64,000 bases of DNA from an uncultured Bacteroidaceae bacterium (GCA_905233465.1 CAJOEI010000025.1:4951-68950), one strand, 5' to 3'; positions 3,126 through 64,000 are shown, numbered from the stretch's first letter. A program made the numbers and translations. Notes: generated from the letters alone by a model not told the origin.

Positions 3126-3217
3126 GTTTAAAGTTTAAGGTTTAAAGGGAAGTCCATTGAACATTGAACATTGTGAATTATGCATTGTAAATTGTAAATT
3201 GTCAAATTGTAAATTAA
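3126..3217. repeat. mosaic tract with 7-bp periodicity, 13 units
   Basis: The tract reads gtttaaa gtttaag gtttaaa, then a 7-nt gap, then ccattga acattga acattgt gaattat gcattgt aaattgt aaattgt caaattgt aaattaa. It fills the spacer between the tex stop and the start of the membrane-protein gene. Confidence 0.9.
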
Positions 3218-3231
3218 ATGGGATTGTGCAT

Positions 3232-5418
3232 TCATTTAACGTTTTTCATGGAGAGTGATATGCGGTTGCGGCGCTGATCCACCTCCGTGACACGCACCAT
3301 AACATGCTGGTGCAGGCGCACTACGTCTGTGGGATGTGCCACATAGCGGTCGGCCAGCTGTGAGATGTGCACCAGACCGTCCTGATGCACGCCGATGTCC
3401 ACAAAGGCTCCGAAATTGGTGATGTTGGTGATAATGCCCGGCAACGTCATGCCTGGGCGTAGGTCGTCGATTGTGCTCACGTCGGCAGCAAACTCAAATG
3501 TCTCGGCATCTCCGCGCGGGTCGCGGCCGGGTTTTTCCAACTCCGACATGATGTCGGTCAACGTGGGCAGGCCCACATCAGCGCCAACATAATTATTAAT
3601 GTTTACGCGCGCGCGCAACCCTTTGTCGTTTATCAGGTCGGCGACGTGGCAACCTTGGTCGGCGGCCATCTGCTCGACAAGGGCATAGCGCTCGGGGTGG
3701 ACGGCGCTGCCGTCGAGGGGATTTTTGGCGTCCGTGATGCGCAGAAAGCCGGCACACTGTTCAAAGGCCGACGGCCCCAGACGCGGCACCTTCTTCAGCT
3801 CGGCGCGCGAGGTGAAAGGCCCGTGCTCGCGGCGATAGTCCACGATGTTGCGTGCCAGTGTGGGCCCCAGGCCGCTGATGTATGTCAGCAGATGGCTGGA
3901 TGCTGTGTTGACATCCACACCGACCATATTGACACAGCTCTCCACGGTCTGGTCCAGGGCGCGCCGCAGCTTGGTCTGGTCCACATCGTGCTGATACTGG
4001 CCCACGCCGATGCTCTTGGGGTCAATCTTCACCAGCTCGGCCAGAGGATCCATCAGGCGGCGTGCTATGCTCACGGCTCCGCGCACTGTGACATCTTCGT
4101 CGGGGAACTCCTCGCGTGCCACCTTGGAAGCGGAATAGACCGACGCGCCGTCCTCGGAGACGACATACAGCTTTATGTCTTTGGCTACTTGCTCGCCGCC
4201 CAGCTGATGCAGTGTGAACTCGACAAAGTCCTTGGTCTCGCGGCTGGCGGTGCCGTTTCCTATGGCTATAGCTTCGATGGCATAGCGGTGTGCCATATCC
4301 AACAGGCGCTCCATCGCGTCGGCACGCCGTGCTGCCGGTGGGTGGGGGAAGATGGCTTCGTGGTGCAGCAGGTTGCCCTGTGCATCGAGGCATACTACCT
4401 TGCAGCCTGTGCGGAAGCCGGGGTCAATGCCCATCACGCGCTTCTGGCCCAGAGGAGCGCCGAGCAACAGTTGTCGCAGGTTCTCGGCAAAGACGCGTAT
4501 GGCTTCGTCGTCGGCACGCTCCTTGGACGATGCAGCAAACTCGGTTTCTATTGATGGTGCCAGCAGGCGTTTGTAGCCATCGGCCACAGCCTCGGCCACC
4601 AAGCGTCCGCATTCGCCGCGTGAATGCACCCACTGGTGCTGCAGGCGTTCCACGGCTTCGGCTGCGTCGATGTCGATGCTCACACGCAGGATGCCCTCGA
4701 CCTCGCCGCGCCGCATGGCCAATAGGCGGTGGCTGCTGGCGCGGCGCAGGGGTTCGCTCCAGTCGAAGTAGTCGCTGTATTTGGCGGCACGGGCCTCGAA
4801 GTCGGCGGCTGCCTGTTCGTCCTTGGTCTTGCTGCGCACCAGTTTGGAACTCACCACGGCTGTGCGGCGGAACATGCCGCGTATGCTCTGGCGCGAGCGC
4901 TCGTCCTCGCTGACCATCTCGGCGATGATGTCCTGTGCGCCGCTGAGAGCCTCGGCCACGGTGGGCACGGCCTCGCTGCCGGCATACGCCTTGGCTGCTG
5001 CGGCCGGGTCGGGGTAGCGCTGCTCGAGCAGCAACAATGCCAGCGGCTCCAGCCCCTGTTCACGGGCTATCTGTGCGCGGGTGCGTCTACGCGGCTTATA
5101 TGGCAAGTAGATGTCTTCCAGCTCGGTGGCATCCCAGCAGGCTTCGATGCGCGTCTGCAGCTCCGGCATCAGTCGCCCTTGCTCGTCGATGGTCTTCAGG
5201 ATGGTCTCCTTGCGATGCGCCGTCTCGGTCAGTTTCTCGCTCAGCTCAGCTATGGAGCCTATCTGCACCTCGTCCAGCCCGCCGGTGCGCTCCTTGCGGT
5301 AGCGGGCGATGAAGGGTATGGTGGCTCCGTCGGCCAGCAGTTCGAGCGTCGCACGTACCTGCTTGGCAGCCAGCTGTGTACGGCTGCTGATGATATCTGT
5401 GAAGATGGTGTTATCCAT
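3232..5418 (-). CDS. tex: Tex-like transcription accessory protein (S1 RNA-binding domain protein)
   Basis: Contains IPFIARYRKERTGGLDEVQI and a C-terminal S1 domain (GIITNITNFGAFVDIGVHQDGLVHISQL). The track start at 5445 is TTG and overlaps a -7 box. I prefer ATG 5418 (MDNTIF); ATG 5430 is also possible. Confidence 0.9.
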   Translation of the reverse strand: MDNTIFTDIISSRTQLAAKQVRATLELLADGATIPFIARYRKERTGGLDEVQIGSIAELSEKLTETAHRKETILKTIDEQGRLMPELQTRIEACWDATELEDIYLPYKPRRRTRAQIAREQGLEPLALLLLEQRYPDPAAAAKAYAGSEAVPTVAEALSGAQDIIAEMVSEDERSRQSIRGMFRRTAVVSSKLVRSKTKDEQAAADFEARAAKYSDYFDWSEPLRRASSHRLLAMRRGEVEGILRVSIDIDAAEAVERLQHQWVHSRGECGRLVAEAVADGYKRLLAPSIETEFAASSKERADDEAIRVFAENLRQLLLGAPLGQKRVMGIDPGFRTGCKVVCLDAQGNLLHHEAIFPHPPAARRADAMERLLDMAHRYAIEAIAIGNGTASRETKDFVEFTLHQLGGEQVAKDIKLYVVSEDGASVYSASKVAREEFPDEDVTVRGAVSIARRLMDPLAELVKIDPKSIGVGQYQHDVDQTKLRRALDQTVESCVNMVGVDVNTASSHLLTYISGLGPTLARNIVDYRREHGPFTSRAELKKVPRLGPSAFEQCAGFLRITDAKNPLDGSAVHPERYALVEQMAADQGCHVADLINDKGLRARVNINNYVGADVGLPTLTDIMSELEKPGRDPRGDAETFEFAADVSTIDDLRPGMTLPGIITNITNFGAFVDIGVHQDGLVHISQLADRYVAHPTDVVRLHQHVMVRVTEVDQRRNRISLSMKNVK

Positions 5419-5442
5419 AGATGTTGTCATGCAATTTGGCGA

Positions 5443-5534: not shown

Positions 5535-5561
5535 CGCCCAAATTTCAAAAAACGTACATTC

Positions 5562-10973: not shown

Positions 10974-11542
10974 CGACAGAAGAGCAGTTCCGGGCGGTGA
11001 TGAGCGAATGCCGCTCCGTATTTCAGGCCAAGTTGCACGATTACGGAGCGGCATGGCGTATTCTGCGAGTGACATCACTCACCGATCAGCTATACATCAA
11101 GGCCAACCGCATCCGCTCGTTAGAGTTGAAGGGCGAGGCGCTTGTAGCTGAGGGCATCCGGCCCGAGTTCGTGGCTATAGTGAACTATGCCATTATCGGT
11201 CTGATACAATTGGCTCATGGTTTTGCCGAGCAACCCGATGATATGACGCCCGAACAGGCTCTGGCAGAGTACGACACGCTCGCCGAAGAGTCGTTGCAGC
11301 TGATGTTGCGCAAGAATCACGACTATGACGAGGCTTGGCGAGGAATGCGTGTGAGTAGCTACACCGACCTGATATTGCAGAAGATATTCCGCACCAAACA
11401 GATAGAGGAACTGGGCGGGGTGACGCTGCAGAGCGAGGGCATCGATGCCAATTACATGGATATGATGAACTATGCTGTCTTCGGCCTCATCAAACTCACC
11501 TATGGGGATGCGGCCTCGCCTCAGTTGAAAGTTGAAAGTTGA
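10970..11542 (+). CDS. DUF1599 domain-containing protein (two repeats)
   Basis: KLHDYGAAWRILRVTSLTDQLYIKANRIRSLE recurs as KNHDYDEAWRGMRVSSYTDLILQKIFRTKQIE. The last codons (PQLKVES) and the stop lie inside the GTTGAAA tract. Confidence 0.7.
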   Translation: MTTEEQFRAVMSECRSVFQAKLHDYGAAWRILRVTSLTDQLYIKANRIRSLELKGEALVAEGIRPEFVAIVNYAIIGLIQLAHGFAEQPDDMTPEQALAEYDTLAEESLQLMLRKNHDYDEAWRGMRVSSYTDLILQKIFRTKQIEELGGVTLQSEGIDANYMDMMNYAVFGLIKLTYGDAASPQLKVES

Positions 11543-11579
11543 GAGTTGAAAGTTGAAAGCGGAAAGATGAAAGTTTCAA
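11524..11579. repeat. 7-bp tandem tract (GTTGAAA)n
   Basis: The tract reads gttgaaa gttgaaa gttgaga gttgaaa gttgaaa gcggaaa gatgaaa gtttcaa. It contains both the stop of the DUF1599 gene (11540-11542) and the ATG of the next gene (11567). Confidence 0.9.
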
Positions 11580-12733
11580 CAAGATGGATAGTGGTGAACA
11601 CGTGCCGCCTGCTCGTGTCCGCCATTTTTATTTTATCGGGATTGGTGAAGCTCATCGACCCCCACGGCACAGAATATAAGATTGAGGACTATCTTGTCGC
11701 AATGGGTCTGGACGGCGTGTTGGTGCAACCCTTGCCGCTGTTCTTTGCCGTAGGTATGGCGTTGCTGGAGTTTTGTTTAGGCATTTACCTGTTGTTCGGC
11801 ATACGTCGTCGTCTGACCACCCGCACCATACTGGCCTTTATGCTTGTCTACACGCCGCTGACGCTGTGGCTTGCGCTGACGGATGCTGTGGCGGATTGCG
11901 GCTGTTTCGGTGACGCTCTTGTGCTCACCAACTGGCAGACGTTTGGCAAGAATGTCTGTTTGCTGGCTGCTGCTGTGTTGCTATGTCGCACACGTGCTTG
12001 GCAGACGCGCCTCATCTCGGAGAGCGCGCAGTGGCTGATATCGATATACTCCGTTGTATATGGATTGGCTCTGGCGCTGCTGTGTCTGTGGGGCGAGCCC
12101 GTGATAGACTTCAGACCATTTCATGTCGGACAGGACATTGCTGCAGCGATGGAGTGGCCTGATGATGGGGAGGGGCAGCCTGAAATCCTTGATTTCAGCT
12201 TCGAACCCATAGCGGGACTTGACAATGCGTGCGATGTGAGGGCGGATGATGTGCTTGCCGACAAGGGATATACCTTCCTGCTCATTGCTCCGTATCTTGA
12301 GAGCGCTGACGACGGCAACATGGATCGCATCAATGCCATCGCTGATTACGCTGACGAATATGGTTATCGTTTCCTTTGCCTGACAGCCTCCGACAGCGTA
12401 GCCATACGTCGCTGGCAGGACCTTACAGGCGCCGACTATGCCTTTGCTTTTGCCGACGAGCTGATGCTGAAGACTATTGTTCGCAGCAATCCCGGTCTGA
12501 TGCTTCTGCGCGGAGGCGTTGTGATGGGCAAGTGGAGCCACAACACGCTGCCTGCGCCTGCCGAGCTCACAGCACCGCTGCACTCTCTCGCGTTGGCACA
12601 TCCCCAGCCCGGCAGCTATCGTAGGATGTTGCTCGCGCTACTGCTGTGGTATGTCGTGCCGCTGGTGCTGCTCACGCTGCTGGACCGCCTCGTGGCAGTT
12701 GTACGATGGCAACGGAGAAAGGCAAATTCATAA
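11567..12733 (+). CDS. DoxX/MauE-like membrane protein with C-terminal soluble domain (BT_3928-like)
   Basis: The N-terminus RLLVSAIFILSGLVKLIDPHGTEYKIEDY is followed by 4-5 TM helices. Its position after a DUF1599 gene is typical of Bacteroidota. The track start at 11546 is TTG inside the repeat, so ATG 11567 is preferred. Confidence 0.6.
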   Translation: MKVSTRWIVVNTCRLLVSAIFILSGLVKLIDPHGTEYKIEDYLVAMGLDGVLVQPLPLFFAVGMALLEFCLGIYLLFGIRRRLTTRTILAFMLVYTPLTLWLALTDAVADCGCFGDALVLTNWQTFGKNVCLLAAAVLLCRTRAWQTRLISESAQWLISIYSVVYGLALALLCLWGEPVIDFRPFHVGQDIAAAMEWPDDGEGQPEILDFSFEPIAGLDNACDVRADDVLADKGYTFLLIAPYLESADDGNMDRINAIADYADEYGYRFLCLTASDSVAIRRWQDLTGADYAFAFADELMLKTIVRSNPGLMLLRGGVVMGKWSHNTLPAPAELTAPLHSLALAHPQPGSYRRMLLALLLWYVVPLVLLTLLDRLVAVVRWQRRKANS

Positions 12734-12763
12734 TTCGCTCACAATTCATAATTCACAATTCGA
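12725..12763. repeat. 7-bp tandem tract (AATTCAY)
   Basis: The tract reads aattcat aattcgc (tcac) aattcat aattcac aattcga. The TAA stop of the upstream gene (12731-12733) lies in the tract. Confidence 0.85.
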
Positions 12764-12766
12764 ACC

Positions 12767-12796
12767 ACTTTCAACTTTCAACTGCGGCATAGCCGC
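12767..12796 (+). promoter_or_regulatory. leader element copy 1: (ACTTTCA)2-ACT-GCGGC-ATA-GCCGC
   Basis: The heptamer pair and a 5-bp GC hairpin end 9 nt before the ansA ATG (12806). The same architecture is seen at 17182-17224 (-), 22295-22324 and 22902-22944. Confidence 0.7.
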
Positions 12797-12805
12797 GTTA
12801 GAATT

Positions 12806-14128: not shown

Positions 14129-14210
14129 AATCATCCGGTCGATACACAAGAAACCACTGGTGGAATCAGTAGGAACCAACGGATGAATGGTTCGACAGCT
14201 CACCATAAAT

Positions 14211-14246
14211 CAACTTTCAACTTTCAATTTTCAATTTTCAACTTTC
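14211..14246. repeat. 7-bp tandem tract (CAACTTT/CAATTTT) abutting a start codon
   Basis: The tract reads caacttt caacttt caatttt caatttt caacttt c, followed directly by ATG 14247. Confidence 0.9.
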
Positions 14247-16358
14247 ATGAGCTTAATCCGTAATCTCATGGTCCTCTGTGGCTTAAGTCTGCTCGGGCTG
14301 GTGCCTGTTCAGTCTGAAAACGACTTTGGCAATCTGCGCCGCTATGCTTCTGACAACGCCCGCGTACGTGAACTGCCGCAGGAGCAGCGGCGCGCTGTGT
14401 TCATCGGCAACAGCATCACCGAGGGATGGCGTAACCAACGTCCCGACTTCTTTCAGAAGAACGGCTACATAGGCCGCGGCATCAGCGGACAGACATCCTA
14501 TCAGTTTGTGGTGCGTTTCCGCGCTGATGTCATAGAGCTGAAGCCGCAGGTGGTGGTCATCAACGTCGCAACAAACGATGTCGCAGAAAACACCTGCCCC
14601 TACAACGAAGACCGCACCTTCGCAAACATCGAGTCGATGGTGGAACAGGCATTAGCCAGCGACATCAAGGTCATCCTCACCACCACTTTGCCCGCCGCAC
14701 GTTTCGGTTGGAACCCCGACATCAAGGACGCCCCCGCCAAGATTGAGAGCCTCAACGCCCGCATCCGCGACTATGCTGCCCGCAAGCGACTGACCTTCGT
14801 GGACTACTATAGCCACATGGTTACTGGCGAGGAGAAGGCTCTGAACCCGGCTTATACAAAAGATGGCGTTCACCCCACTGCCGATGGTTACACGGTGATG
14901 GAGTTGCTCATTAAACCGGCTATCGATAGAGTTTTGGGGCTCGACAAGAAAGATGCCCATCAACTCAGCTTTGCCGAGCGCATAGCCACACCGGCCGACA
15001 ACACACGCGTCACGCGCCGCCCTGTCGAGGGCGAGCGGCTGTTCCGTTCTGACGTCATCGAGCGTAAGATACAAGAGGTCAAGCAGCTGCTTACGGGAGC
15101 GCCTTATCTGGCATGGATGTTCGAGAACTGCTTCCCCAACACGCTCGACACCACTGTCCACTACCAGACCACGGAGGACGGCGACGACGATACCTTTGTC
15201 TATACCGGTGACATCCATGCCATGTGGTTGCGCGACAGTGGTGCGCAGGTGTGGCCCTATGTGCAGTTTGCACGTGAGGACGAAGGGGTGCGCAAGATGG
15301 TGCGTGGCACCATACTACGTCAGCTCAAGTGCATCTGCCTCGACCCCTATGCCAACGCTTTCAATATGGGACCGACGGGCAGCGATTGGGCCAGCGACCT
15401 GACGGATATGACACCCTGGCTGCACGAGCGTAAGTATGAGATTGACTCGCTCTGCTATCCCTTGCGCCTGGCCTACCACTACTGGATAGTGACGGGCGAC
15501 GACAGCATCTTCAGAACGGAACTGTGGAGTAACGCCCTCCGCGCCATACTGAAAACCTTCCGCGAACAGCAGCGCAAGACCAACCACGGCCCCTACCACT
15601 TCCAGCGCCGCACGGCAGCGCAGTATGACACCATGAGTCACAATGGCTACGGCAACCCCATCCGTCCCTGCGGACTCATCGCTTCCGCCTTCCGTCCGAG
15701 CGATGACTGTACGGTGCTGCTCTACCTCGTTCCCTCCAACTTCATGGCCGTATCCAACCTGCGTCGCGCTGCCGACATCCTCACTCGTGTGACAGGTGAC
15801 GCTGCAATGGCAAAGGAGTGTACGGATTTGGCCGATGAGGTGGCAGAAGCGCTGAAGAAATACGCAGTATACAGGCACCCGAAGTATGGCAAAATCTATG
15901 CCTATGAGGTCGATGGTTTCGGCAATCATCTGCTCATGGATGATGCCAATGTGCCATCGCTGCTCGCAATGGCCTATCTTGGCGACGTCTCGCCCAAAGA
16001 CCCGATTTATAAGAACACGCGCCGCTTCGTGCTCAGCGAGGACAATCCTTACTTCTTCCGCGGCAAGGCAGGCGAGGGCATAGGTGGTCCGCACGTGGGC
16101 TATGACATGGTGTGGCCGATGTCTATCATGATGCGCGCCTTCACCTCCACCGATGATGCCGAGATACGTCGCTGTCTGCAAATGCTTGTTGACACCGACG
16201 CTGGCACTGGCTTCATCCACGAGTCGTTCCACAAGGATGACGCATCACGCTATACCCGTTCGTGGTTCGCCTGGCAGAACACGCTCTTCGGAGAACTCAT
16301 CATCAAACTGATTGACGACGGCAAGCTCGACTTGCTCAACTCCATACAGAAAAGTTGA
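14247..16358 (+). CDS. fusion protein: N-terminal SGNH/GDSL hydrolase plus C-terminal GH125 (DUF1237) exo-alpha-1,6-mannosidase-like domain
   Basis: Signal peptide MSLIRNLMVLCGLSLLGLVPVQS. SGNH blocks are FIGNSITEGW, GISGQTS, ATNDV and DGVHPT. The GH125-like motif is FVYTGDIHAMWLRDSGAQVWPY. The track start at 14187 would translate the repeat tract, so ATG 14247 is preferred. Confidence 0.75.
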   Translation: MSLIRNLMVLCGLSLLGLVPVQSENDFGNLRRYASDNARVRELPQEQRRAVFIGNSITEGWRNQRPDFFQKNGYIGRGISGQTSYQFVVRFRADVIELKPQVVVINVATNDVAENTCPYNEDRTFANIESMVEQALASDIKVILTTTLPAARFGWNPDIKDAPAKIESLNARIRDYAARKRLTFVDYYSHMVTGEEKALNPAYTKDGVHPTADGYTVMELLIKPAIDRVLGLDKKDAHQLSFAERIATPADNTRVTRRPVEGERLFRSDVIERKIQEVKQLLTGAPYLAWMFENCFPNTLDTTVHYQTTEDGDDDTFVYTGDIHAMWLRDSGAQVWPYVQFAREDEGVRKMVRGTILRQLKCICLDPYANAFNMGPTGSDWASDLTDMTPWLHERKYEIDSLCYPLRLAYHYWIVTGDDSIFRTELWSNALRAILKTFREQQRKTNHGPYHFQRRTAAQYDTMSHNGYGNPIRPCGLIASAFRPSDDCTVLLYLVPSNFMAVSNLRRAADILTRVTGDAAMAKECTDLADEVAEALKKYAVYRHPKYGKIYAYEVDGFGNHLLMDDANVPSLLAMAYLGDVSPKDPIYKNTRRFVLSEDNPYFFRGKAGEGIGGPHVGYDMVWPMSIMMRAFTSTDDAEIRRCLQMLVDTDAGTGFIHESFHKDDASRYTRSWFAWQNTLFGELIIKLIDDGKLDLLNSIQKS

Positions 16359-16427
16359 AAGTTGAAAGTTCTTTCTGAGGAAAGCGACCAAAGGTCGAGC
16401 GGAAAGATCAAAGTTCAATGTTCAATG
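16354..16427. repeat. 7-bp periodic tract (GTTGAAA ... AAAGTTC AATGTTC)
   Basis: gttgaaa gttgaaa contains the stop codon at 16356-16358. This is followed by agcggaaagatcaaagttcaatgttcaatgggg. The string agcggaaagatNaaagtt also occurs at 11558-11575. Confidence 0.8.
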
Positions 16428-16434
16428 GGGTCGC

Positions 16435-17169: not shown

Positions 17170-17181
17170 GGGAAGTGAGAC

Positions 17182-17224
17182 GCGGCTAAGCCGCAGTTGA
17201 AGGTTTAGAGTTTAAAGTTGAAAG
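17182..17224 (-). promoter_or_regulatory. leader element copy 2 (minus-strand orientation)
   Basis: The minus strand reads actttca actttaa actctaa accttca act GCGGC tta GCCGC gtctcacttccc ATG. The hairpin ends 12 nt before the nitroreductase start (17169). The tract begins at the stop of the SDR gene (17229). Confidence 0.7.
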
Positions 17225-17228
17225 TTAA

Positions 17229-18041
17229 TCACATCGCGAAGGCATTGAAGCCGCCATCAACCACAGCCACTGTGCCAGTCACGAAGCGTGAGGCATCGGA
17301 GATGAGGTAATGGATAGTGCCGCAGAGCTCTTCAGGGTCACCCATGCGTCCGAACGGGGTCTGACGAATCACATCCTGACCGCGCTGGGTGTAACTTCCG
17401 TCGGGGTTCGTCAGCAGCGAGCGGTTCTGCTCTGTGATGAAGAATCCGGGAGCTATGGCGTTCACGCGGATGCCCTCGCCGAACTTCTTGGCGCACTCGG
17501 TGGCCATATAAGCGGTGAAGTTGCTGATTCCGGCCTTCGCAGCGGCGTAACCGCAGACGCGGGTCATCGGACGGAAGGCAGCCATCGACGAGAAATTCAC
17601 GATAGCGCCCTTTCCCTGCTTCACCATCGGCTTCAGGAACACCTGTGTAGGGATAACGGTGCCCGTCAGGTTCAGGTTCAGCACAGTCTGGAACTGAGCG
17701 GGGTCGAGGTCGAAGAAGGTCTTGTCGGGGGCGATGGTCGCTCCGGGCATATTACCGCCGGCAGCGTTCAGCAGCGCATCCACACGGCCGTACTTGGCCA
17801 GGATGGCATCGCAGTTCTCCTGCAACTTTTCCTGACTCATCACATCCGTTTCCATGAAACAGGCTTCTCCGCCAGCTGCCACGATGTCGGCCACAATAGC
17901 CTCACCCACAGCAGCCTTACGACCGAGAATTACCACTTTTGCGCCTTCAGCAGCAAGATATTTGGCGATGGCGCGACCCAGCACGCCTGTGCCGCCAGTT
18001 ATGACCACGACGTGGTCTTTGATATCAAATAAATTACTCAT
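17229..18041 (-). CDS. uxuB: SDR family oxidoreductase, likely D-mannonate oxidoreductase
   Basis: Contains VVVITGGTGVLGRAIAKYLA and a YAAAK catalytic motif. The call rests partly on its position next to uxuA, the MFS gene and uxaC. Confidence 0.65.
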   Translation of the reverse strand: MSNLFDIKDHVVVITGGTGVLGRAIAKYLAAEGAKVVILGRKAAVGEAIVADIVAAGGEACFMETDVMSQEKLQENCDAILAKYGRVDALLNAAGGNMPGATIAPDKTFFDLDPAQFQTVLNLNLTGTVIPTQVFLKPMVKQGKGAIVNFSSMAAFRPMTRVCGYAAAKAGISNFTAYMATECAKKFGEGIRVNAIAPGFFITEQNRSLLTNPDGSYTQRGQDVIRQTPFGRMGDPEELCGTIHYLISDASRFVTGTVAVVDGGFNAFAM

Positions 18042-19261: not shown

Positions 19262-20704
19262 TTATATTTTTTTATAACGTGGCACAAGGGTCTTGATGCA
19301 CGCCCATGCTATGAGATAGGCTACTGCACAGTAGCAGAAGATGATCATGTAGCCGGCAGGTTTGCCCGTGGCACCAAAGAAGCGGAAAGCCTCGCCCTGA
19401 GCATCGGCATAGGTGAAGAGCATTCCGGAACATTTATTGATGGCAAAGCAGCAGAGGCCGCCGAACATTGTACCAATACCCGTGATGGTGGCTATCGCAG
19501 ATTTTGGAAACATATCTCCAATAGTAGAATAGAGGTTGGCAGACCACGCCTGATGACCAGCGCCAGCCAGCCCGATGATTATACAAGGCCACCAGGGAGA
19601 GATGCCAGCCAAGGGCTGGGCAAACATCGCAAAGATGGGAAGGAAAGCAAAGATCAACATCGCTCGCATACGTCCGGCATAAGGATTCATGCCCCAGTGC
19701 TCCACGAAGAGTTTCGGCAGATAGCCGCCGAGGATGCTGAGCAATGTGACGATGAGATAGAGCACAAAGATCAAAGCCTGTCCCATGCCCGAAGAAGATG
19801 GGTAACCGAGTTCGGAGAAATAGGCGGGCGCCCAGAAAAGGAAGAACCACCATACGCCATCGGTCATCAGCTTACCCACGACGAAAGCCCACGTCTGACG
19901 ATAGCGGAAACACTGAACAAACGACAGGGTGGGTTCTGTCTCTTCGTCTGAAGTCTTGAGCTGTGATGCCTCGTCTGGCTGATTGATATAGGCCAACTCT
20001 GCAGCATTGACGAAGCGACTTTTGGAAGGCGACGTATAGAATGCCTGCCACAAACCGGCCCAGATGAATCCGATACCGCCGATGATAATGAAAGCCCATT
20101 CCCAACCGAAATACTCTGCCAGAAGAGGAATCGTAAGGGGCGCGACAAGGGCTCCGACCGAAGCGCCGGCATTAAAGATGGAAGTGGCGTAAGCACGGTC
20201 TTTCTTGGGGAAGTACTCAGCCGTCACCTTGATTGCAGCGGGGAAGTTGCCCGACTCACCCGTAGCCAAAATAATTCGGCAAGCCAAGAAAAGCCAGACG
20301 CTAGTGGTGGAAACCATGAGAGCCATTTCGGAACCTTTCTCCACAGCGTAGAGGGCATCGGTATCTGCGAGGCCTGTAAGCTTTAGCGTAGCCCAACCGC
20401 ACGCTGCATGAAGGCAGGCGCCAACGGACCAAATGACGATAGCCCAGATATAGCCCCTCTTTGTTCCCAGCCAATCAATGAACCGGCCGGCAAACAATGA
20501 GATAAAGGCATAGAAGATGGAGAAAACGGCCGTGATGTTGCCATAGTCGTTGTCATTCCAGTGAAACTCAGGCGCGATAAAGTCTTTCCACGTCAGCGAC
20601 AGCACTTGTCGGTCGAGATAATTCACTGTTGTGGCGACGAAAAGCAATGAACATATCCACCAACGCCAATTTGATTTACTATTTGACGATTTACTATTTA
20701 CCAT
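19262..20704 (-). CDS. MFS transporter, hexuronate (ExuT-like)
   Basis: About 12 TM segments. WRWWICSLLFVATTVNYLDRQVLSL resembles the ExuT N-terminus. The first 12 codons (MVNSKSSNSKSN) are encoded by a 7/8-bp tandem tract. Confidence 0.8.
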   Translation of the reverse strand: MVNSKSSNSKSNWRWWICSLLFVATTVNYLDRQVLSLTWKDFIAPEFHWNDNDYGNITAVFSIFYAFISLFAGRFIDWLGTKRGYIWAIVIWSVGACLHAACGWATLKLTGLADTDALYAVEKGSEMALMVSTTSVWLFLACRIILATGESGNFPAAIKVTAEYFPKKDRAYATSIFNAGASVGALVAPLTIPLLAEYFGWEWAFIIIGGIGFIWAGLWQAFYTSPSKSRFVNAAELAYINQPDEASQLKTSDEETEPTLSFVQCFRYRQTWAFVVGKLMTDGVWWFFLFWAPAYFSELGYPSSSGMGQALIFVLYLIVTLLSILGGYLPKLFVEHWGMNPYAGRMRAMLIFAFLPIFAMFAQPLAGISPWWPCIIIGLAGAGHQAWSANLYSTIGDMFPKSAIATITGIGTMFGGLCCFAINKCSGMLFTYADAQGEAFRFFGATGKPAGYMIIFCYCAVAYLIAWACIKTLVPRYKKI

Positions 20705-20710
20705 TTGTTA
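20668..20710. repeat. 7/8-bp tandem tract covering the start codon and N-terminus of the MFS gene
   Basis: The minus strand reads ATG gtaaata gtaaatc gtcaaata gtaaatc aaattgg. Confidence 0.8.
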
Positions 20711-20735: not shown

Positions 20736-22184
20736 CTACATTTTACAATCTACATTAAAATAATGCTTTGCATTATTGTATGATATATCTTCCACCATTT
20801 GTCGAACACGCTGTTTCTCATAGCCGATGAAAGGTATGAGACCTTGCTCGACATCATTGCCGATGAGGTTGCACAGCACACGGCGGAAATACTCATGGCG
20901 CGGGTAGGACAAGAATGAACGGCTGTCGGTGAGCATACCCACAAAGCGGCTCAGGAGCCCCAGCACAGAGAGAGCATTCAACTGACGTTCCATGCCGTCT
21001 TTCTGGTCCAGGAACCACCAGCCTGAACCCCACTGTATCTTGCCTGCCACACTGCCATCCTGAAAGTTGCCAAGCATAGTAGCCACCATCTCGTTGTCAG
21101 CAGGATTGAGGTTATATAGAATGGTCTTTGCCAGATGGCCCTCGCTGTCCAGCAAGTCGAGGAAACGCGACATCGAATTTGCTGTTTGCCACTGGCCTAT
21201 GCTATCATAACCCGTGTCCGGTCCAATGGACGAGAACATACGGCTGTTGTTGTTGCGCATCGCACCATAGTGGTACTGCTGTACCCAACCGGACGCGTAG
21301 TCCTGCACAGCGAAGATATACAGCATGGCACTCTTGAACTTGCGGACTTCTTCCGCATCAGCCGAACCGCCATTAATTAGCTGTCCGAAGATGCGTTCTA
21401 TCTCTGTGTCGGAATATGGCTCTGAATAGAACTCCTCAAGGCCGTGGTCGCTGAGACGGCAGCCACGAGCGTGGAAGAAGTCGTGACGACGCTGCAGGGC
21501 ATCAATGAAGTCAGAGAACGTGCGAATATCAATATCTGCAACGTTGCCCAACTTTGTCACGTAGGCCCTCCAAGCATCAGCATTCTCCACAGCCATGGCC
21601 TTGTCGGGACGCCACGCAGGCAACATTTTCGTCATTTGACAATTTGACGTTTTACGATTTACGATTTCTTCTGCATAAGCAGAATGATACCTCAAATCAT
21701 CTACAGGGTCGTCTGTGGTGCATACCACTTCCACATTATAGTGTCGCATGAGGCCACGGGCAGAGAAGCGGAGGTCGTGCTGCAGGCGGTCGTTGCATGT
21801 GTCGTAAATCTCACGTGCGGTGTCTGGGTTGAGGCGTTTGTCTATGCCGAAGGCTGTTTTCAGCTCCAGATGTGTCCAGTGATACAATGGATTGCGAAAA
21901 CAGTAAGGCACTGTGGCAGCCCACGCCTGGAACTTCTCCCAGTCGGAGGCGTCGCCGGTGATGAAGCGCTCGTCTACGCCGTTGGTACGCATGGCACGCC
22001 ATTTATAGTGGTCACCGCCCAACCACAACTCGGTAATGCTGCTAAATCGGTGATCTTCTGCCACGAGCTTGGGGTCGAGGTGACAGTGATAGTCTATGAT
22101 TGGCTGCGTAGCAGCATGATGATGATATAGGTCCTGGGCTGTGGTGCTCTGCAACAGGAAGTTCTGGTCAAGGAATGGAGTCAT
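20736..22184 (-). CDS. uxaC: glucuronate isomerase
   Basis: Contains IIDYHCHLDPK, GDHYKWRAMRTNGV, NPLYHWTHLELK, WVQQYHYGAMRNNN and GMLTDSRSFLSYPRHEYFRR. Confidence 0.92.
   Translation of the reverse strand: MTPFLDQNFLLQSTTAQDLYHHHAATQPIIDYHCHLDPKLVAEDHRFSSITELWLGGDHYKWRAMRTNGVDERFITGDASDWEKFQAWAATVPYCFRNPLYHWTHLELKTAFGIDKRLNPDTAREIYDTCNDRLQHDLRFSARGLMRHYNVEVVCTTDDPVDDLRYHSAYAEEIVNRKTSNCQMTKMLPAWRPDKAMAVENADAWRAYVTKLGNVADIDIRTFSDFIDALQRRHDFFHARGCRLSDHGLEEFYSEPYSDTEIERIFGQLINGGSADAEEVRKFKSAMLYIFAVQDYASGWVQQYHYGAMRNNNSRMFSSIGPDTGYDSIGQWQTANSMSRFLDLLDSEGHLAKTILYNLNPADNEMVATMLGNFQDGSVAGKIQWGSGWWFLDQKDGMERQLNALSVLGLLSRFVGMLTDSRSFLSYPRHEYFRRVLCNLIGNDVEQGLIPFIGYEKQRVRQMVEDISYNNAKHYFNVDCKM
21633..21668. 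repeat. 7/8-bp tandem tract inside uxaC
   Basis: The tract reads catttgac aatttgac gttttac gatttac gatttc. It is translated on the minus strand as EIVNRKTSNCQM. Confidence 0.8.
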
Positions 22185-22192
22185 TATTATAT

Positions 22193-22260
22193 GATTTTAC
22201 GATTTCACGATTTCACGAATTTTACAATTTTTTTGAGGTTGAGAGTTGCGGATTGATTAC
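22193..22260. repeat. 8-bp tract (GATTTYAC)n followed by a weaker 7-bp tract
   Basis: The tract reads gattttac gatttcac gatttcac gaattttac, then ttgaggt tgagagt tgcggat tgattac. It begins 9 nt upstream of the uxaC start. Confidence 0.8.
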
Positions 22261-22267
22261 TTTTTCA

Positions 22268-22275
22268 TATTTTTG
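22268..22275 (+). promoter_or_regulatory. candidate -7 box TATTTTTG for ORF 22335
   Basis: Matches TAnnTTTG. This places the downstream heptamer/hairpin element in the 5' UTR. Confidence 0.45.
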
Positions 22276-22294
22276 CGGCAGCATTGTGAATAAT

Positions 22295-22324
22295 ACTTTC
22301 AACTTTCAACTGCGGCTTCGCCGC
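22295..22324 (+). promoter_or_regulatory. leader element copy 3: (ACTTTCA)2-ACT-GCGGC-TTC-GCCGC
   Basis: The hairpin ends 10 nt before ATG 22335. Confidence 0.7.
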
Positions 22325-22334
22325 GTCCTAAGAT

Positions 22335-22853
22335 ATGAAACATCGTTTTAATCCGTTCTTTTTTATGTTTTGGCTATGTCTCAACGCGAGTGCTGCGGAA
22401 GGGCCATTAGGTTGGATGTCAGCATATTGTCCTGCTGATAGCCTGACGGAACATATTACCGTTGAGGGCGTTGAGCTCCGTGGGGACATATATGAGTTCT
22501 CGGATGTGTTGCGCAGTCACGGATTCAAGCTGGAGAAGCGTTTGCGTGATGTCGACTCATTCCTTTTCAAGGGCACCATTGCTGGCAATTCTTGTTATTT
22601 TCAGGTCAGCTACACACCATTGTCACGTACCGTTTATCGCATTATGGCTCAGCCGCGTCATGTTCAGGAGAACGATTATGTTGATTCGCTGTGTGTGCGT
22701 TATGGAGACGTCTTCGACAGCAAGCCCGGTTCATATCAGTGGATGTTGCCCAACGGTGCTGTGATGCTTATTACGCCTGACAACGGCGAGCCGACGCTGG
22801 TCATCATCGATGGGGCTGGCTATGCTGTGTACAAGGATGAGACAGGAAGATGA
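22335..22853 (+). CDS. hypothetical secreted protein
   Basis: 172-aa ORF with a signal-like N-terminus (FFFMFWLCLNASAAEG). I recognise no motif. Confidence 0.5.
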   Translation: MKHRFNPFFFMFWLCLNASAAEGPLGWMSAYCPADSLTEHITVEGVELRGDIYEFSDVLRSHGFKLEKRLRDVDSFLFKGTIAGNSCYFQVSYTPLSRTVYRIMAQPRHVQENDYVDSLCVRYGDVFDSKPGSYQWMLPNGAVMLITPDNGEPTLVIIDGAGYAVYKDETGR

Positions 22854-22857
22854 GAAT

Positions 22858-22896
22858 ATTTTACGATTTCACGATTTTACGATTTTACGGTTTTCG
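22858..22896. repeat. 8-bp tandem tract (ATTTTACG)n
   Basis: The tract reads attttacg atttcacg attttacg attttacg gttttcg. It belongs to the same unit family as 22193-22225 and 21633-21668. Confidence 0.85.
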
Positions 22897-22901
22897 ATTG
22901 G

Positions 22902-22944
22902 CTTTAAACTTTAAACCTTAAACTTTCAACTGCGGCTTCGCCGC
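22902..22944 (+). repeat. leader-element copy 4: (CTTTAAA)3-CTTTCAA-CT-GCGGC-TTC-GCCGC
   Basis: Same architecture as copies 1-3. Here it overlaps the 3' end of folB on the opposite strand and supplies its last 8 codons and stop. Confidence 0.7.
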
Positions 22945-23316
22945 GTCTATGGCGCAGCCACGTTGGATTTCGACGCTGAAGCCTGCGCCATCGCAGTCGA
23001 TGCCCATGGGGGGATTGAGTTTGGTGATTTCCAGATGTATGGTCTGGGCCAACGGCAGTTGGTCGAAGAGTGCCTGGCAGATGCGGCCTGCAACGTGCTC
23101 GAGTAGTGCCGAGGGCTGTGCCATCTGTGTGCGTATGATGTCGGCTACATCGGCATAGGATATGGTGTCTGCGAGGGCGTCGCTGTGCATGGCGGCCTGC
23201 AGCTGTCCATCGATGCGCACGTTGACAACGAAGTCCGCTCCCACGGTGTGTTCCTGCGGCATCACGCCGTGATGGGCGCGGATGCGCATGTTGCGTATGA
23301 AGATTGATGTTACCAT
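22918..23316 (-). CDS. folB: dihydroneopterin aldolase
   Basis: Contains IRNMRIRAHHGVMPQEHTVGADFVVNV, TISYADVADII and IHLEITKLNPPMG. The C-terminal tail (...AAKPQLKV) is repeat-encoded. Confidence 0.82.
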   Translation of the reverse strand: MVTSIFIRNMRIRAHHGVMPQEHTVGADFVVNVRIDGQLQAAMHSDALADTISYADVADIIRTQMAQPSALLEHVAGRICQALFDQLPLAQTIHLEITKLNPPMGIDCDGAGFSVEIQRGCAIDAAKPQLKV

Positions 23317-31335: not shown

Positions 31336-31337
31336 AT

Positions 31338-50596: not shown

Positions 50597-50633
50597 TTAT
50601 TATATTATTATCTCAACTTGAAACTTAAACAAA

Positions 50634-50663
50634 GTTCCCGCCTCATTGCAGTGAAGCGGGAAC
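50634..50663 (-). terminator. attenuator terminator upstream of pheA
   Basis: The minus strand reads GTTCCCGC-N14-GCGGGAAC (8-bp stem) followed by TTTGTTTAAGTTT. The last U of the run lies about 18 nt upstream of the pheA ATG (hairpin base about 37 nt upstream). Confidence 0.7.
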
Positions 50664-50705
50664 CTGATATTATCAATTGTCAATTTCCAATTATCAATTG
50701 TACAC
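50664..50705. repeat. 7-bp tandem tract (TATCAAT/TGTCAAT/TTCCAAT) inside the pheA leader
   Basis: The tract reads ctgatat tatcaat tgtcaat ttccaat tatcaat tgtacac. It forms the loop between the antiterminator strands. Confidence 0.85.
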
Positions 50706-50716
50706 GGCCTACCGCT

Positions 50717-54223: not shown

Positions 54224-54327
54224 ATTCTGTGATTATATTATCTGATGTTATGCTATGGAGTTATGTTTAGGAGTTAAAGGGCCAATGCTATTATTAAGTC
54301 TCATTTGTGGATAATTATCATTTGGCT

Positions 54328-54374
54328 CATTATAACTCCCCATTATAACTCCCTTTTATAACTCCTTAACTCCC
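54328..54374. repeat. tandem 13-bp repeats (CATTATAACTCCC)
   Basis: The tract reads cattataactccc cattataactccc ttttataactcc ttaactccc. Inverted partial copies (ggagttat, ggagttaa) lie at 54257-54277. All lie within the 150-bp TolC-HlyD spacer. Confidence 0.85.
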
Positions 54375-57769: not shown

Positions 57770-57849
57770 ACGAATTATACGAATTATACGAATATTGTAT
57801 ATGCGTATTTAGTCTGCGCTTATAGATTCGTATAATTCGTATAATTCGT
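57770..57849. repeat. perfect 24-bp inverted repeat built from tandem 9-mers (CGAATTATA), with a 32-nt spacer
   Basis: acgaattatacgaattatacgaat (57770-57793) is the exact reverse complement of attcgtataattcgtataattcgt (57826-57849). It lies 45 nt after the leuA stop. Confidence 0.9.
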
Positions 57850-62367: not shown

Positions 62368-62380
62368 AAAATAGTTTTGA

Positions 62381-62426
62381 GGAAGTTAAAGAAGTTAAAG
62401 GACGACACCTTAACTTCTTTAACTCC
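62381..62426 (+). terminator. long hairpin built from tandem 9-mers (GAAGTTAAA)
   Basis: ggaagttaaagaagttaaagg-acgaca-ccttaacttctttaactcc forms about 19 bp with two single-nt bulges. No T-tract follows. Confidence 0.5.
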
Positions 62427-62449
62427 CGATACTATAATAGATCACTCTT

Positions 62450-62926
62450 ATGGTAGGAGAACAGGACAAAGATTTCATGCGTCAGGCTATACGTCTGGCC
62501 GATGACAATGTGGACCACGGCGGCGGTCCCTTCGGTGCCGTCATAGTAAAAGACGGCGAGGTGATTGCAGGAGGATGCAACAGAGTGGTGCCCAATAACG
62601 ACCCCACGGCACACGCCGAAGTCAGCGCCATACGCGAGGCATGCAACAAACTCGGCACATTCGACCTCTCGGGTTGCACCATCTACACCTCATGTGAGCC
62701 TTGCCCCATGTGCCTCGGCGCCATATACTGGGCACGCATAGGACGTATCTATTATGGAAACACGCGATATGATGCACGCGACATCAACTTCGCCGATGAC
62801 TTCATATACGAGGAGATGGATCGCCCGATAGAGCAACGTCAACTGCCCATCATACCCCTCCTGCGCGAAGAAGCCATCCACACCTTCCGCAAGTGGGCAG
62901 AGAAAGAAGACAAAACTGAATATTAA
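62450..62926 (+). CDS. CMP/dCMP-type zinc deaminase (guanine deaminase / nucleoside deaminase-like)
   Basis: Contains PTAHAEVSAIREAC and SCEPCPMCLGAIYWARI. Length is 158 aa. Confidence 0.8.
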   Translation: MVGEQDKDFMRQAIRLADDNVDHGGGPFGAVIVKDGEVIAGGCNRVVPNNDPTAHAEVSAIREACNKLGTFDLSGCTIYTSCEPCPMCLGAIYWARIGRIYYGNTRYDARDINFADDFIYEEMDRPIEQRQLPIIPLLREEAIHTFRKWAEKEDKTEY

Positions 62927-64000
62927 AGGGGCCACTCCACCGGTGCGAAGCCCCTCTTGATGGACAACTCTGACAACGGCGTGACGGCACACCATACCGC
63001 CATATCACGCACGCCAAAGTCGAGAGGTTTACCTGCAGCGAGCGCTCCTATAAGGCGCTCGTTCATTGTTTGTGTGAGGGCCGAATGCGATTGGCTGCCG
63101 TCGTCGCGCACGGTGATGGTGCCACGTGTTCCCACGATGTGGAACAGACGGTCGTAAGGTTGCGGCGTCAGCACATCGTGACGTAGTATGATGGTGCGTC
63201 CCAGCGCCGTGCGTAGCAATGTTGTCGTGTGGTCGCCGTTGCAGAAGTCAGGTGCCGCCGTGCCCATACGCTGCTCGTAGGCCGACGGGCCCGTGAACGC
63301 CGCCGTATCCATACTCACCAACGTAGTGATGCGATCCTGAGGCCATTGACCATTGACCATTGACCATTGAACATTGTCCATTGAGCATTGCCCATTGTCC
63401 ATTGTCCATTGTCCATTGTCCATTGTCCATTGTCCATTTGTAATTCCCAGCGCCATACATATCGGTGCCAATTCATGGGTCGGATACAGGTCGCCGCGCT
63501 GATGCCGGTTCATCTCCAAACGCCAGGGCGTCCAGCGACCATCAAGAGCATGATAGTATGTACCCTCTGCATGTATCGGCATGCCTATCTCGCCCTCACG
63601 TATCCGCCGTATGGCATCAAGGATGGCAGGGTCGTAGCAGCAGTTCTCAAGCATGAAACAATGACAACCCGTCGTCTCCGAAGTCTCAACCAACGCATTG
63701 ATGTCCTCCAACGTCAGCGCAGCAGGCACCTCCACAGCTACATGCCGCCCCGCACGCATAGCCTCTATAGCCAGACGCGCATGGCTCTGCCAGTCAGTAC
63801 ATATATATGTCAGCTTGACAACGTCGACCATTGACCATTGACCATTGACCATTGATTTATGGTGAGCCTGTCGAACCAATTGTCCATTGTCCATTGTTCT
63901 TTGTGCCGCACGCACCCTCTCCACATCCGTGTCACGCAACGCCGATATACGCACCGGCAGCTTCTCGCCGATGCGCAACAGGCTACGCAACGCCGTCATA
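62923..64000 (-). CDS. Gfo/Idh/MocA family oxidoreductase (GH109-like), 5' end probably outside the window, carrying translated heptamer arrays
   Basis: Contains HARLAIEAMRAGRHVAVEVPAALTLEDINALVETSETTGCHCFMLENCCYDP. The ATG at 63999 is only the most upstream in-window Met. Insert peptides are NGQWTMDNGQWTMDNGQCSMDNVQWSMVNGQW and SMVNGQWSMV. Confidence 0.7.
   Translation of the reverse strand, partial: MTALRSLLRIGEKLPVRISALRDTDVERVRAAQRTMDNGQLVRQAHHKSMVNGQWSMVDVVKLTYICTDWQSHARLAIEAMRAGRHVAVEVPAALTLEDINALVETSETTGCHCFMLENCCYDPAILDAIRRIREGEIGMPIHAEGTYYHALDGRWTPWRLEMNRHQRGDLYPTHELAPICMALGITNGQWTMDNGQWTMDNGQCSMDNVQWSMVNGQWPQDRITTLVSMDTAAFTGPSAYEQRMGTAAPDFCNGDHTTTLLRTALGRTIILRHDVLTPQPYDRLFHIVGTRGTITVRDDGSQSHSALTQTMNERLIGALAAGKPLDFGVRDMAVWCAVTPLSELSIKRGFAPVEWPL
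63343..63440. repeat. 14-unit heptamer array inside the Gfo/Idh/MocA CDS
   Basis: (ccattga)x4 acattgt ccattga gcattgc (ccattgt)x6 ccatttg. Perfect runs are at 63343-63370 and 63392-63433. Confidence 0.92.
63828..63904. repeat. second heptamer array inside the same CDS
   Basis: (ccattga)x4, then a 20-nt gap, then ccaattgt ccattgt ccattgt tctttgt. Confidence 0.9.

Follow-up and report, generated by a model that had tools for sequence, protein, structure and literature searches.

A 64,000-nucleotide stretch of DNA from an uncultured Bacteroidaceae bacterium (GCA_905233465.1, CAJOEI010000025.1:4951-68950; hereafter the window) contained many AT-rich tracts of short tandem units, mostly 7 bp long, which were located at gene junctions and within several genes. 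It was likely, in our view, that these tracts represented a bloom, specific to this lineage, of simple sequence repeats (SSRs) with heptanucleotide units, which slippage created and resized, which were sometimes copied between loci and were tolerated in spacers and protein loops, and which occasionally caused a frameshift in a gene. In the lineage of the window, which belonged to uncultured gut or rumen Bacteroidales, the tracts were present at ~5 times the Bacteroidota background.

Periodicity, length change and distribution of the tracts

The tandem organization of the tracts, with periods of 7-9 bp, was real and their density was well above that of shuffled sequence. Tandem Repeats Finder (TRF) reported 52 arrays in the window, 20 with period 7 and 31 with periods 7-9, whereas 30 dinucleotide-preserving shuffles produced on average 9.9 rows, 1.4 and 4.0, respectively. 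The arrays with periods 7-9 consisted of 2.4-13.7 contiguous head-to-tail copies with 76-100% matches. Moreover, in a strict lag test, which required no fewer than 13 matches out of 14 at a given lag, lag 7 accounted for 11 tracts, lags 8 and 9 for two each, and lag 13 for one, but lags 4, 5, 6, 10, 11, and 12 for zero; Markov shuffles, the control, contained essentially none. The use of lags 7-9 and not of other lags supported one generating bias common to all the tracts. Exact doublets were formed by 12 different heptamer necklaces, and the A+T content of the tracts was 57-79% compared to ~45% in the window.

An earlier note on this DNA had listed 19 tract loci, and the best-lag periodicity of each was compared with 500 shuffles. 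At 16 of the 19 loci the periodicity was equalled by 0-1 of the shuffles, and the tracts at 17182-17231 (4/500) and 20668-20710 (17/500) were weaker. The locus 22295-22324 (64/500) had only 2.4 units and a hairpin, and 32605-32658 (309/500) was rejected as a tandem tract since it was actually an inverted repeat with arms made of short tract pieces.

Length change was observed between closely related strains. The species of the window was present in several ENA and Logan metagenome assemblies, and five loci from four other samples could be compared with the window from 6.4 to 32 kb and from 56 to 64 kb (~74 kb in total, 99.5-100% identity). The tracts were present in all of them. Three indels were found in this comparison, and two of these were whole heptamer units inside tracts, which accounted for ~1% of the compared sequence. 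Namely, locus L081 had an additional 14 bp (two units) at 17224 in the leader tract 17182-17231, and L089 lacked 28 bp (four CCATTGT units) at 63392 in the tract 63343-63438. These whole-unit indels were direct evidence, at the assembly level, for length change of the slippage type; no length change was seen in ~42 of the 44 tract-by-strain comparisons. The third indel was a 14-bp non-repeat insertion (GGATCATCAACCGC) after position 31217 in L086. Three of the six substitutions in L081 also fell in repeats.

The same strict lag test was applied to 1.28 Mb of sequence made up of 80 uxaC loci of diverse Bacteroidota. It detected 32 tracts at lag 7, 20 at lag 8, and 0-2 at lags 4-6, indicating that the 7-8 nt register was general. 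The mean density of lag 7-9 tracts in the 80 loci was 0.047 per kb, whereas the window had 0.234 per kb, L082 0.47, and L088 0.48; a few other metagenome-assembled genomes (MAGs) had 0.2-0.28 per kb. On the other hand, L085, which was close to the window by its UxaC protein (~80% identity), as well as L098 and L100, which were close by UxuA (same 90%-identity cluster), had just ~0-0.09 tracts per kb. The existence of such tract-poor near relatives implied that a lineage-specific factor raised the birth rate or the tolerance of the tracts. A rise of tract density with genomic G+C in Bacteroidota was rejected (Spearman 0.10, p = 0.43). Orthologous junctions also differed: the uxaC leader had no tract in L085, (CTTTCAA)6 in L082, and an 8-mer tract in the window, and the MFS-uxuA junction (MFS, major facilitator superfamily) was 5 bp long in the window and held a 53-bp (AGTTGAA)n tract in L082. 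Thus, over the time in which species diverge, tracts appeared, disappeared, and gave way to others.

According to the mechanism that we propose, tracts would arise and change in size when strands slip as AT-rich seed sequences are replicated or repaired, and the 7-8 nt register would presumably belong to the replication machinery of bacteria in general and not to the locus. They would persist where they were harmless, namely in transcribed co-directional and convergent spacers, in 5' leaders, and over last codons, while tracts in the surface loops of proteins would persist when their total length kept the frame. Segments that carry tracts would sometimes be copied elsewhere, probably when similar tracts recombine or undergo gene conversion, and inverted copies would give rise to long hairpins. 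The consequences were spacers of strain-variable length and an occasional gene switched off by a frameshift.

Several observations weighed against this mechanism. There were just two polymorphic events, both multiples of 14 bp, and they came from short-read assemblies and not from reads. The near relatives L085, L098, and L100 were almost free of tracts. Pure independent slippage also left unexplained why the unit GTTGAAA/TTTCAAC recurred at at least five loci (with exact doublets at five separate ones) and again in L082 at non-orthologous junctions, why 11558 and 16398 had the same succession of variant units, and why the similarity between some loci reached into their non-periodic flanks. 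It had been claimed in the earlier note that copying or a common mechanism, and not local slippage, had produced the tracts. This was borne out with respect to the common bias and the paralogous segments, but length change of the slippage type was seen directly and orthologous leaders differed.

Copied segments and inverted arrays

A composite of the form (CTTTMAA)n-CTGCGGC-NNN-GCCGCGTC was found at 12767, 22295, 22896, and, on the minus strand, 17178. Further minus-strand copies were a degenerate one at 11506 and one at 3099 with a different stem (ACGAGC-TTT-GCTCGT). These 5-6 copies shared 87-94% identity over 33-53 nt, and the 13-nt GC hairpin GCGGC-NNN-GCCGC occurred in five copies, each joined to a tract. 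In four of the six composite copies the end lay 6-12 nt ahead of a start codon. The remaining two were located antisense over the last codons of the DUF1599 and FolB genes, and for this reason both proteins ended with ...DAA(S/K)PQLKV. The first copy (12739..12799, plus strand) consisted of (TCACAAT)x3.3, (ACTTTCA)x2.4, and the hairpin GCGGC-ATA-GCCGC, ending 6 nt before the ATG of the asparaginase gene, and the minus-strand copy at 17178..17230 combined (CTTTMAA)n with GCGGC-TTA-GCCGC and ended 12 nt before the ATG of the nitroreductase gene. At 11506..11580, the degenerate hairpin GCGGCCTCGCCTC was followed by (AGTTGAA)x7.6; this tract extended over both the stop codon of DUF1599, a TGA within one unit, and the start of a BT_3928-family gene, and it encoded the DUF1599 C-terminus ...DAASPQLKVES. 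The hairpin ACGAGC-TTT-GCTCGT (3110-3124) adjoined three neighboring tracts at 3124..3215 (AGTTTAA x3.3, CATTGAA x2.7, and ATTGTAA x4.4), which separated the Tex stop codon from the start of the following minus-strand gene.

Two of the composite copies were parts of direct repeats of ~100-140 bp (8-mer tract, 7-mer tract, and GC hairpin) that flanked the gene 22335-22853 on both sides. The left module (22186..22327, plus strand) occupied the divergent spacer between uxaC and this hypothetical gene; it contained (GATTTCAC)x4.6, a spacer with a box of the TAnnTTTG type, (ACTTTCA)x2.4, and the hairpin GCGGC-TTC-GCCGC, which ended 7 nt before the ATG. The right module (22850..22948, plus strand) contained (ATTTTACG)x5.4, (CTTTAAA)x4.3, and the same hairpin, and its opposite strand encoded the last nine codons and the stop of FolB (...DAAKPQLKV*). 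The small gene between the modules encoded a secreted-looking protein of 162-172 aa without a family match, and it may be a cassette that was inserted or duplicated at the uxaC/folB junction.

There were further copied segments. In the leader of the GH125 gene (14188..14247, plus strand), the unique core TGGTTCGACAGCTCACCATAAATC was followed by (AACTTTC)x5.4 up to the ATG, and a paralogue of this segment was present on the minus strand at 63826..63900, in frame within a gene of the Gfo/Idh/MocA family (GH109-like), where (GACCATT)x4.3, the core GATTTATGGTGAGCCTGTCGAACCA, and (ATTGTCC)x2.7 lay in a variable region near the N-terminus of the protein. The two segments shared ~26 of 28 non-periodic bases, while their right-hand units differed. 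Paralogous pairs were also found at 31303/50672, at 11556/16396, and between the 8-mer tracts 22186/22850. The strings ATTTCCAATTATCAATT (31314 and 50683) and AGCGGAAAGATNAAAGTT (11558 and 16398) had been placed correctly before. The tract at 31303..31343 (ATCCATT/TCCAATT/ATCAATT) lay downstream of a hairpin between convergent genes, and its paralogue at 50672-50712 (ATCAATT/GTCAATT/TCCAATT) was the last part of a longer element at 50614..50712 that began with CAACTTGAAACTTAAAC and an 8-bp GC hairpin (GTTCCCGC...GCGGGAAC). At 16349..16428, also between convergent genes, (AAAGTTG)x2.9 with the GH125 stop codon was followed by a small hairpin and AGCGGAAAGATCAAAGTTCAATGTTCAATGG, and both tract parts could pair as RNA (z = -3.2). 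Two independent contigs ended within 31205-31260 (L087 at 31205 and scaffold_1689 of L081 at ~31258), and the 14-bp insertion of L086 was located there too, which suggested local heterogeneity of the ComEC-AlaDH convergent spacer.

Recombination or gene conversion between similar tracts was probably the most economical reading of these copies; a module similar to MITEs (miniature inverted-repeat transposable elements) or repetitive extragenic palindromic (REP) elements was possible for the copied segments. More broadly, the tracts as a whole could belong to small non-autonomous mobile or recombining modules of the MITE, REP, or Rickettsia palindromic element kind, in which a heptamer block with a GC hairpin or a ~25-nt core would be copied, also in frame, and slippage would only resize it later. 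We regarded this explanation as unlikely. It would account for the similarity of the composite copies, the tract-core-tract arrangement present in two copies (one in frame in a gene), the matching pairs 31303/50672 and 22186/22850, the direct repeats around the gene 22335-22853, and the loops of related MAGs that carried other repeat-derived insertions. However, the copies within the window lacked terminal inverted repeats, target-site duplications, and fixed boundaries, they numbered just 2-6 and were of unequal length, and most tracts had no recognizable fixed partner. No copy of the composite turned up in 21 kb of sequence from L082, a relative rich in tracts, and a scan of JGI metagenome contigs for TTTCAACTGCGGCNNNGCCGCGT returned seven matches, all by chance, in coding sequence of unrelated organisms. 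Moreover, there was no transposase, recombinase, or REP-associated tyrosine (Y1) transposase (RAYT) among the annotated open reading frames (ORFs) of the 64 kb. This agreed with the earlier statement that the window lacked recombinases, transposases, and reverse transcriptases: no such domains were detected in its scanned or Pfam-annotated ORFs (those at 53237-54223 and 54374-56005 lay outside the scan), nor among the ORFs of related loci with precomputed Pfam annotation.

Inverted tract pieces could fold into long hairpins at 57770-57849, 62377-62426, 54247-54365, 32603-32660, and partly 16349-16428. The strongest fold (57770..57849; -39.1 kcal/mol, z = -8.3) was formed by arrays of the 9-mer ACGAATTAT (x2.7) and of its complement (x3.2), which produced a perfect 24-nt inverted repeat with a 32-nt loop; it was single-copy in the window and had no flanking duplication. 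At 62377..62426, upstream of the cytidine deaminase gene, (GAAGTTAAA)x2.1 preceded the inverted copy CTTAACTTCTTTAACTC. Two inverted 13-mer arrays at 54247..54365 (GTTATGCTAAGGA x2.3 and CATTATAACTCCC x2.9) paired as GGAGTTAT/ATAACTCC (z = -2.7), and the inverted repeat at 32603..32660 had 14-15 nt arms made of GTTGAAAGT-type tract pieces (z = -4.9). Similar inverted heptamer arrays occurred in the unrelated loci L016 and L082. Such arrays could be terminators, stabilizers, or products of template switching. As for the hairpin-tract combinations, their interpretation as intrinsic terminators was rejected because a T-run was missing and the orientation was ~4 with and 4 against the genes.

A different kind of array was located at 14017-14128 in the 390-bp spacer upstream of GH125, starting ~20 nt past a TAnnTTTG-type box. 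It consisted of five tandem 22-bp units (TTGTCCACGAACGCGGACGAAA), each with a ~16-bp palindrome (GTCCACGnnCGTGGAC), and L081 differed within it at two adjacent bases (14095-14096). It looked like an operator or iteron array or five leader hairpins.

Tracts at gene junctions and within genes

The window was an ordinary part of a Bacteroidales chromosome with ~55% G+C. It encoded a SusC/SusD pair, two C10 peptidases, Tex, a GH125-GDSL enzyme, hexuronate genes (uxaC, an MFS transporter, uxuA, and uxuB), ComEC, ribonucleotide reductase, and similar housekeeping genes. Its UxaC had a best match of only 69-70% identity in species-representative genomes, among the matches listed, and its best matches in a large protein collection were MAG proteins with 75-83% identity. 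A search of Rfam 15 at the gathering threshold returned tRNA-Arg as the sole match in the window, and below this threshold there was no credible match (by E-value) to the tracts or hairpins.

Tract bases made up 8.7% of the non-coding and 0.58% of the coding DNA (~15-fold difference). The earlier impression of tracts at almost every gene junction was too strong, since they were present at ~17 of 47 junctions, or in ~60% of the spacers of at least 30 bp. They occupied 10-11 of 17 co-directional and 3 of 4 convergent (at least 30 bp) spacers, i.e., 13-14 of 21 together, while four of the five divergent, promoter-bearing spacers were empty. The divergent spacers contained TAnnTTTG boxes, which we take to be the Bacteroidetes-type promoter consensus. 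In three tract-free divergent spacers (5520-5542, 9406-9428, and 33971-33993) a motif TAnnTTTGCGCCC(A/G)AA was kept; it was probably the Bacteroidetes -7 promoter box together with the start region.

The position of tracts at stop and start codons followed from their sequence and needed no function. Since 7 and 3 have no common factor, (GTTGAAA)n contained TGA in every frame within 21 nt, and therefore ORFs that entered such a tract ended there. Stop codons of the DUF1599, GH125, and FolB genes were all located within tract units. Conversely, (TTTCAAC)n and (ACAATGG)n were stop-free in all frames and were read through, explaining the over-long N-termini of the naive ORF list in comparison to the gene calls. 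Counting both the window and L082, at least nine tracts ended ~0-30 nt from a start codon. The corresponding genes were GH125, asparaginase, nitroreductase, the 22335 gene, the 2253-3098 gene, BT_3928, MFS, and GH109-like in the window, and uxaC, uxuA, and MFS in L082. A weak AGTAAAT-like tract (20668..20710, minus strand) occupied the far 5' end of the ORF of the MFS transporter and encoded MVNSKSSNSKSN.

This proximity to start codons raised the question of whether the tracts were selected cis-acting elements of transcripts, serving as unstructured, A/U-rich pads for Shine-Dalgarno-independent initiation or as arrays that bind proteins (S1, Csp, or CsrA-like), with the inverted arrays acting as stabilizing or terminating hairpins. 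To our knowledge, Bacteroidota lack the use of Shine-Dalgarno sequences. The preference for co-directional and convergent over divergent spacers pointed in the same direction, as did the presence of different tracts at one leader position in two species and the fact that inverted arrays folded far better than shuffles (z = -8.3 and -4.9); an RNA-binding protein has been proposed for TAACTGA repeats, which provided a precedent (PMC4679880). Nevertheless, we found this explanation doubtful. The contrast between junction types was not statistically significant at these numbers, and tracts were also present within genes and at 3' ends. Unit sequence was not kept at orthologous leaders, and close relatives did without tracts altogether. 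Leaders with tracts were no less structured than shuffles (z = -0.45 to -2.2) and had no Rfam match. Orientation to the downstream gene was mixed: the rule that leader tracts always turn the G-free strand toward the ribosome was rejected with a ratio of ~7:4 (G-poor to G-rich, L082 included). Thus, a function as leader, spacer, or switch was possible but was supported neither by orientation nor by conservation.

Within genes, tracts aligned to gaps in distant orthologues of both UxaC and the GH109-like protein. An imperfect (CGTAAAT)x3.6 tract in uxaC (21633..21668, minus strand) encoded the loop EEIVNRKTSNCQMTKM, which replaced a short DS-GFEIKM loop of distant orthologues (Muribaculum). As read from the sequence, the third unit of this tract deviated from the consensus exactly where an in-frame TAA would arise. 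The loop was common, with changes, to orthologues at ~80% identity, and its DNA was still visibly periodic in L082 and L085, which suggested that it was old and tolerated. The tract in the GH109-like gene, (CCATTGW)x13.7 (63343..63438, minus strand, 96 bp), was likewise in frame in this Gfo/Idh/MocA gene with a GH109_C domain. It encoded TNGQWTMDNGQWTMDNGQCSMDNVQWSMVNGQWPQ, a 32-residue loop of the NGQWTMD type. An alignment with orthologues at 51-68% identity showed this loop to be purely additional sequence behind the conserved MALGIG motif, and other repeat-like insertions were present at this point in two closer orthologues. A third tract was located past the window end, just upstream of the probable GTG start of this gene. 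The gene was intact (358 aa) in the window and in L088, while the 28-bp deletion in L089 caused a frameshift and the gene was called there as two ORFs of 129 and 218 aa. Thus, intact and frameshifted alleles coexisted among strains that were 99.5% identical.

Related MAGs provided additional observations on such loops. In three UxaC proteins (P0030, P0068, and P0048), the tract-bearing loop held other repeat-derived insertions, and one of these, PLPLPCREGSNY...GRAGGGS, was a translated GC-rich palindromic element. Two GH109-like proteins (P0125 and P0123) had repeat-derived insertions in the same loop as well, including a tandem 13-residue SAGSPAPVPGxFS. In-frame entry of intergenic-type repeats into enzyme loops seemed to be common in this clade. 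Members of the UxuA 90%-identity cluster (18063-19256 in the window; P0241-P0255) varied from 394 to 417 aa, and the uxuB ORF of L082 started with six CATAAGCCC 9-mers. Variation in terminal length caused by tracts seemed widespread in related MAGs, affecting gene calls.

The frameshift in the GH109-like gene was also relevant to a further explanation, in which the tracts would be contingency loci whose changes in unit number are exploited for reversible on/off or graded switching (phase variation). In gut Bacteroidales, phase variation is usually ascribed to DNA inversions. A 7-nt unit shifts the frame, the tract at 63343 had 13.7 copies in an ORF with on and off alleles among strains, one contig ended within this tract, and the leader tract in L081 differed by two units. 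A comparable case is the reported control of hmw expression in Haemophilus influenzae by heptanucleotide promoter repeats (PMC8262952). We nonetheless considered this explanation improbable. Most of the affected genes were housekeeping or carbohydrate-catabolic and not surface-variable, most tracts were short and imperfect (2.4-5 units) and nearly invariant between strains, and the off allele may be a plain loss-of-function mutation. Equally improbable was an undescribed non-autonomous module of this lineage, a tandem-heptamer block with a small GC hairpin or a short fixed core, that is copied into transcribed spacers and, in frame, into surface loops of enzymes, provides a structure-free leader for Shine-Dalgarno-independent translation, varies by slippage, and occasionally switches genes. 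Finally, although the sequences were short-read metagenome assemblies and some contigs broke close to tracts, an assembly or sequencing artefact or chance in AT-rich spacers was already refuted, because identical tracts occurred in four assemblies that differed in both sample and assembler, tracts were shorter than a read, and shuffles yielded essentially none.

Two other features of the window were noted. In the C10 peptidase gene 58026-62180, L089 had 12 substitutions in 55 bp (58517-58571) beside the catalytic-Cys motif, and none in the other 7.5 kb of its comparison. Four of them changed residues (Y>F, S>N, N>Y, and K>I), the rest were silent, and 9 of the 12 fell at positions where the window had A. 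Mutagenesis by a diversity-generating retroelement was rejected since no template repeat was present in the window or flanks, and the cluster was probably a recombination patch. The second feature was a 14-bp perfect palindrome (TTGTCCCCATAGAC-CGC-GTCTATGGGGACAA) at 45585-45625 between convergent GH36 and PPDK-like genes, which was a plain bidirectional terminator-like hairpin and had no tract.

Significance and relation to known repeat classes

These results indicated that some uncultured Bacteroidales lineages carried heptamer arrays at ~0.2-0.5 per kb, which changed by whole units between near-identical strains, entered enzymes as tolerated loops, and then could frameshift them. In practical terms, gene callers over-extended or truncated ORFs at tracts and metagenome contigs broke at them, while the tracts themselves were ready-made strain markers. 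The significance would rise if the hairpin or core modules proved to be mobile or if the cause of the lineage burst was found.

Several known classes differed from the tracts in their anatomy. Clustered regularly interspaced short palindromic repeats (CRISPR) have 25-40 nt repeats with unique spacers and were rejected because the window units were contiguous and 7-13 nt long. MITEs were rejected since the composite copies had variable ends and no terminal inverted repeats, and an iteron reading of the tracts also failed on anatomy. REP elements and bacterial interspersed mosaic elements (BIMEs) are built on imperfect palindromes of 20-40 nt at many intergenic sites; the window hairpin, which recurred five times beside tracts, may resemble them in part, but it was shorter (13 nt) and always joined to a tract. 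The Rickettsia palindromic elements, which Ogata et al. in 2000 are said to have described as in-frame selfish DNA in genes, would resemble the window in having repeat DNA that was long tolerated in frame in surface loops of enzymes. However, they are reportedly palindromes of 100-150 nt in many near-identical copies, while the window had tandem heptamers with at most two copies per fixed core. The short tandemly repeated repetitive (STRR) sequences of cyanobacteria, the classical example of such repeats, were more similar, being dispersed intergenic tandem heptamers with one unit at many loci and without a known mechanism or function. They belong to a different phylum, and the window units were AT-rich and heterogeneous. 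The STRR units of heterocystous cyanobacteria are CCCCAGT, TTGGTCA, and CAACAGT, and none of them formed a doublet in the window, whose gene content (SusC/SusD) was that of Bacteroidales; thus, the tracts were not STRRs.

Heptamer repeats have been described in Bacteroidetes. MacGregor (2015; PMC4679880) reported TAACTGA arrays near start codons in marine Beggiatoaceae, cyanobacteria, and five Bacteroidetes, as well as other heptamer repeats in spacers of Gramella and Aequorivita. Similar to the window, the TAACTGA arrays have two to tens of copies and are mostly intergenic, often near starts, and occasionally within ORFs. However, this family consists of one heptamer in a consistent forward orientation, whereas the window had diverse units in mixed orientation (~7:4), and TAACTGA occurred in the 64 kb as one single copy and no doublet. 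The tracts were therefore not members of this family. Dense heptamer arrays of Bacteroidales were not described in any of the literature searched. The BrickBuilt minisatellite-MITE of Porphyromonas gingivalis (PMC4596501) is also a multicopy element of Bacteroidales with spacer-less tandem units and fixed flanks, but it is built from a 23-nt unit, has inverted ends on its leader and tail subunits, and always lies between genes. Such ends were missing from the heptamer tracts, and the five 22-bp units at 14017-14128 were the only BrickBuilt-like feature, by unit size. Contingency loci (hmw; PMC8262952, PMC12721329) share with the window the alteration of expression or frame by unit number and the presence of both allele types in a population; with its 7-nt unit and its on and off alleles, the tract inside the GH109-like gene behaved like such a locus. 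Unlike them, the window tracts were not centered on surface or host-interaction genes, and most were too short and imperfect for frequent switching.

The closest relationship was with the long simple sequence repeats (LSSRs) with 5-11 nt units surveyed by Mrázek et al. (2007). According to the summary in PMC4679880, these repeats are scattered sporadically across the phylogeny, most genomes have heptanucleotides as their most frequent long SSR class, and a polymerase contact of ~7 nt favoring slippage was proposed. The earlier note had recognized no REP/BIME, MITE, CRISPR, or other named class in the tracts. This was correct for MITEs and CRISPR, but heptamer LSSRs, STRRs, and TAACTGA repeats had already been described (PMC4679880). 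The survey (Mrázek, Guo and Shah 2007) reportedly did not highlight Bacteroidales, and the window was distinguished by many coexisting units, paralogous tract segments, and several in-frame tracts in enzymes. Comparison of tract-rich and tract-poor sister lineages offers a handle on the register and rate of 7-nt slippage, a question from the same survey. Otherwise, both sets of repeats consist of head-to-tail AT-rich units, mostly of 7 nt, that exceed chance, are mainly intergenic, and are sporadic in distribution. With their contiguous units, excess, dominance of heptamers, and polymorphism of unit number (at the assembly level), the tracts of the window had every testable defining feature of the heptanucleotide LSSR class.

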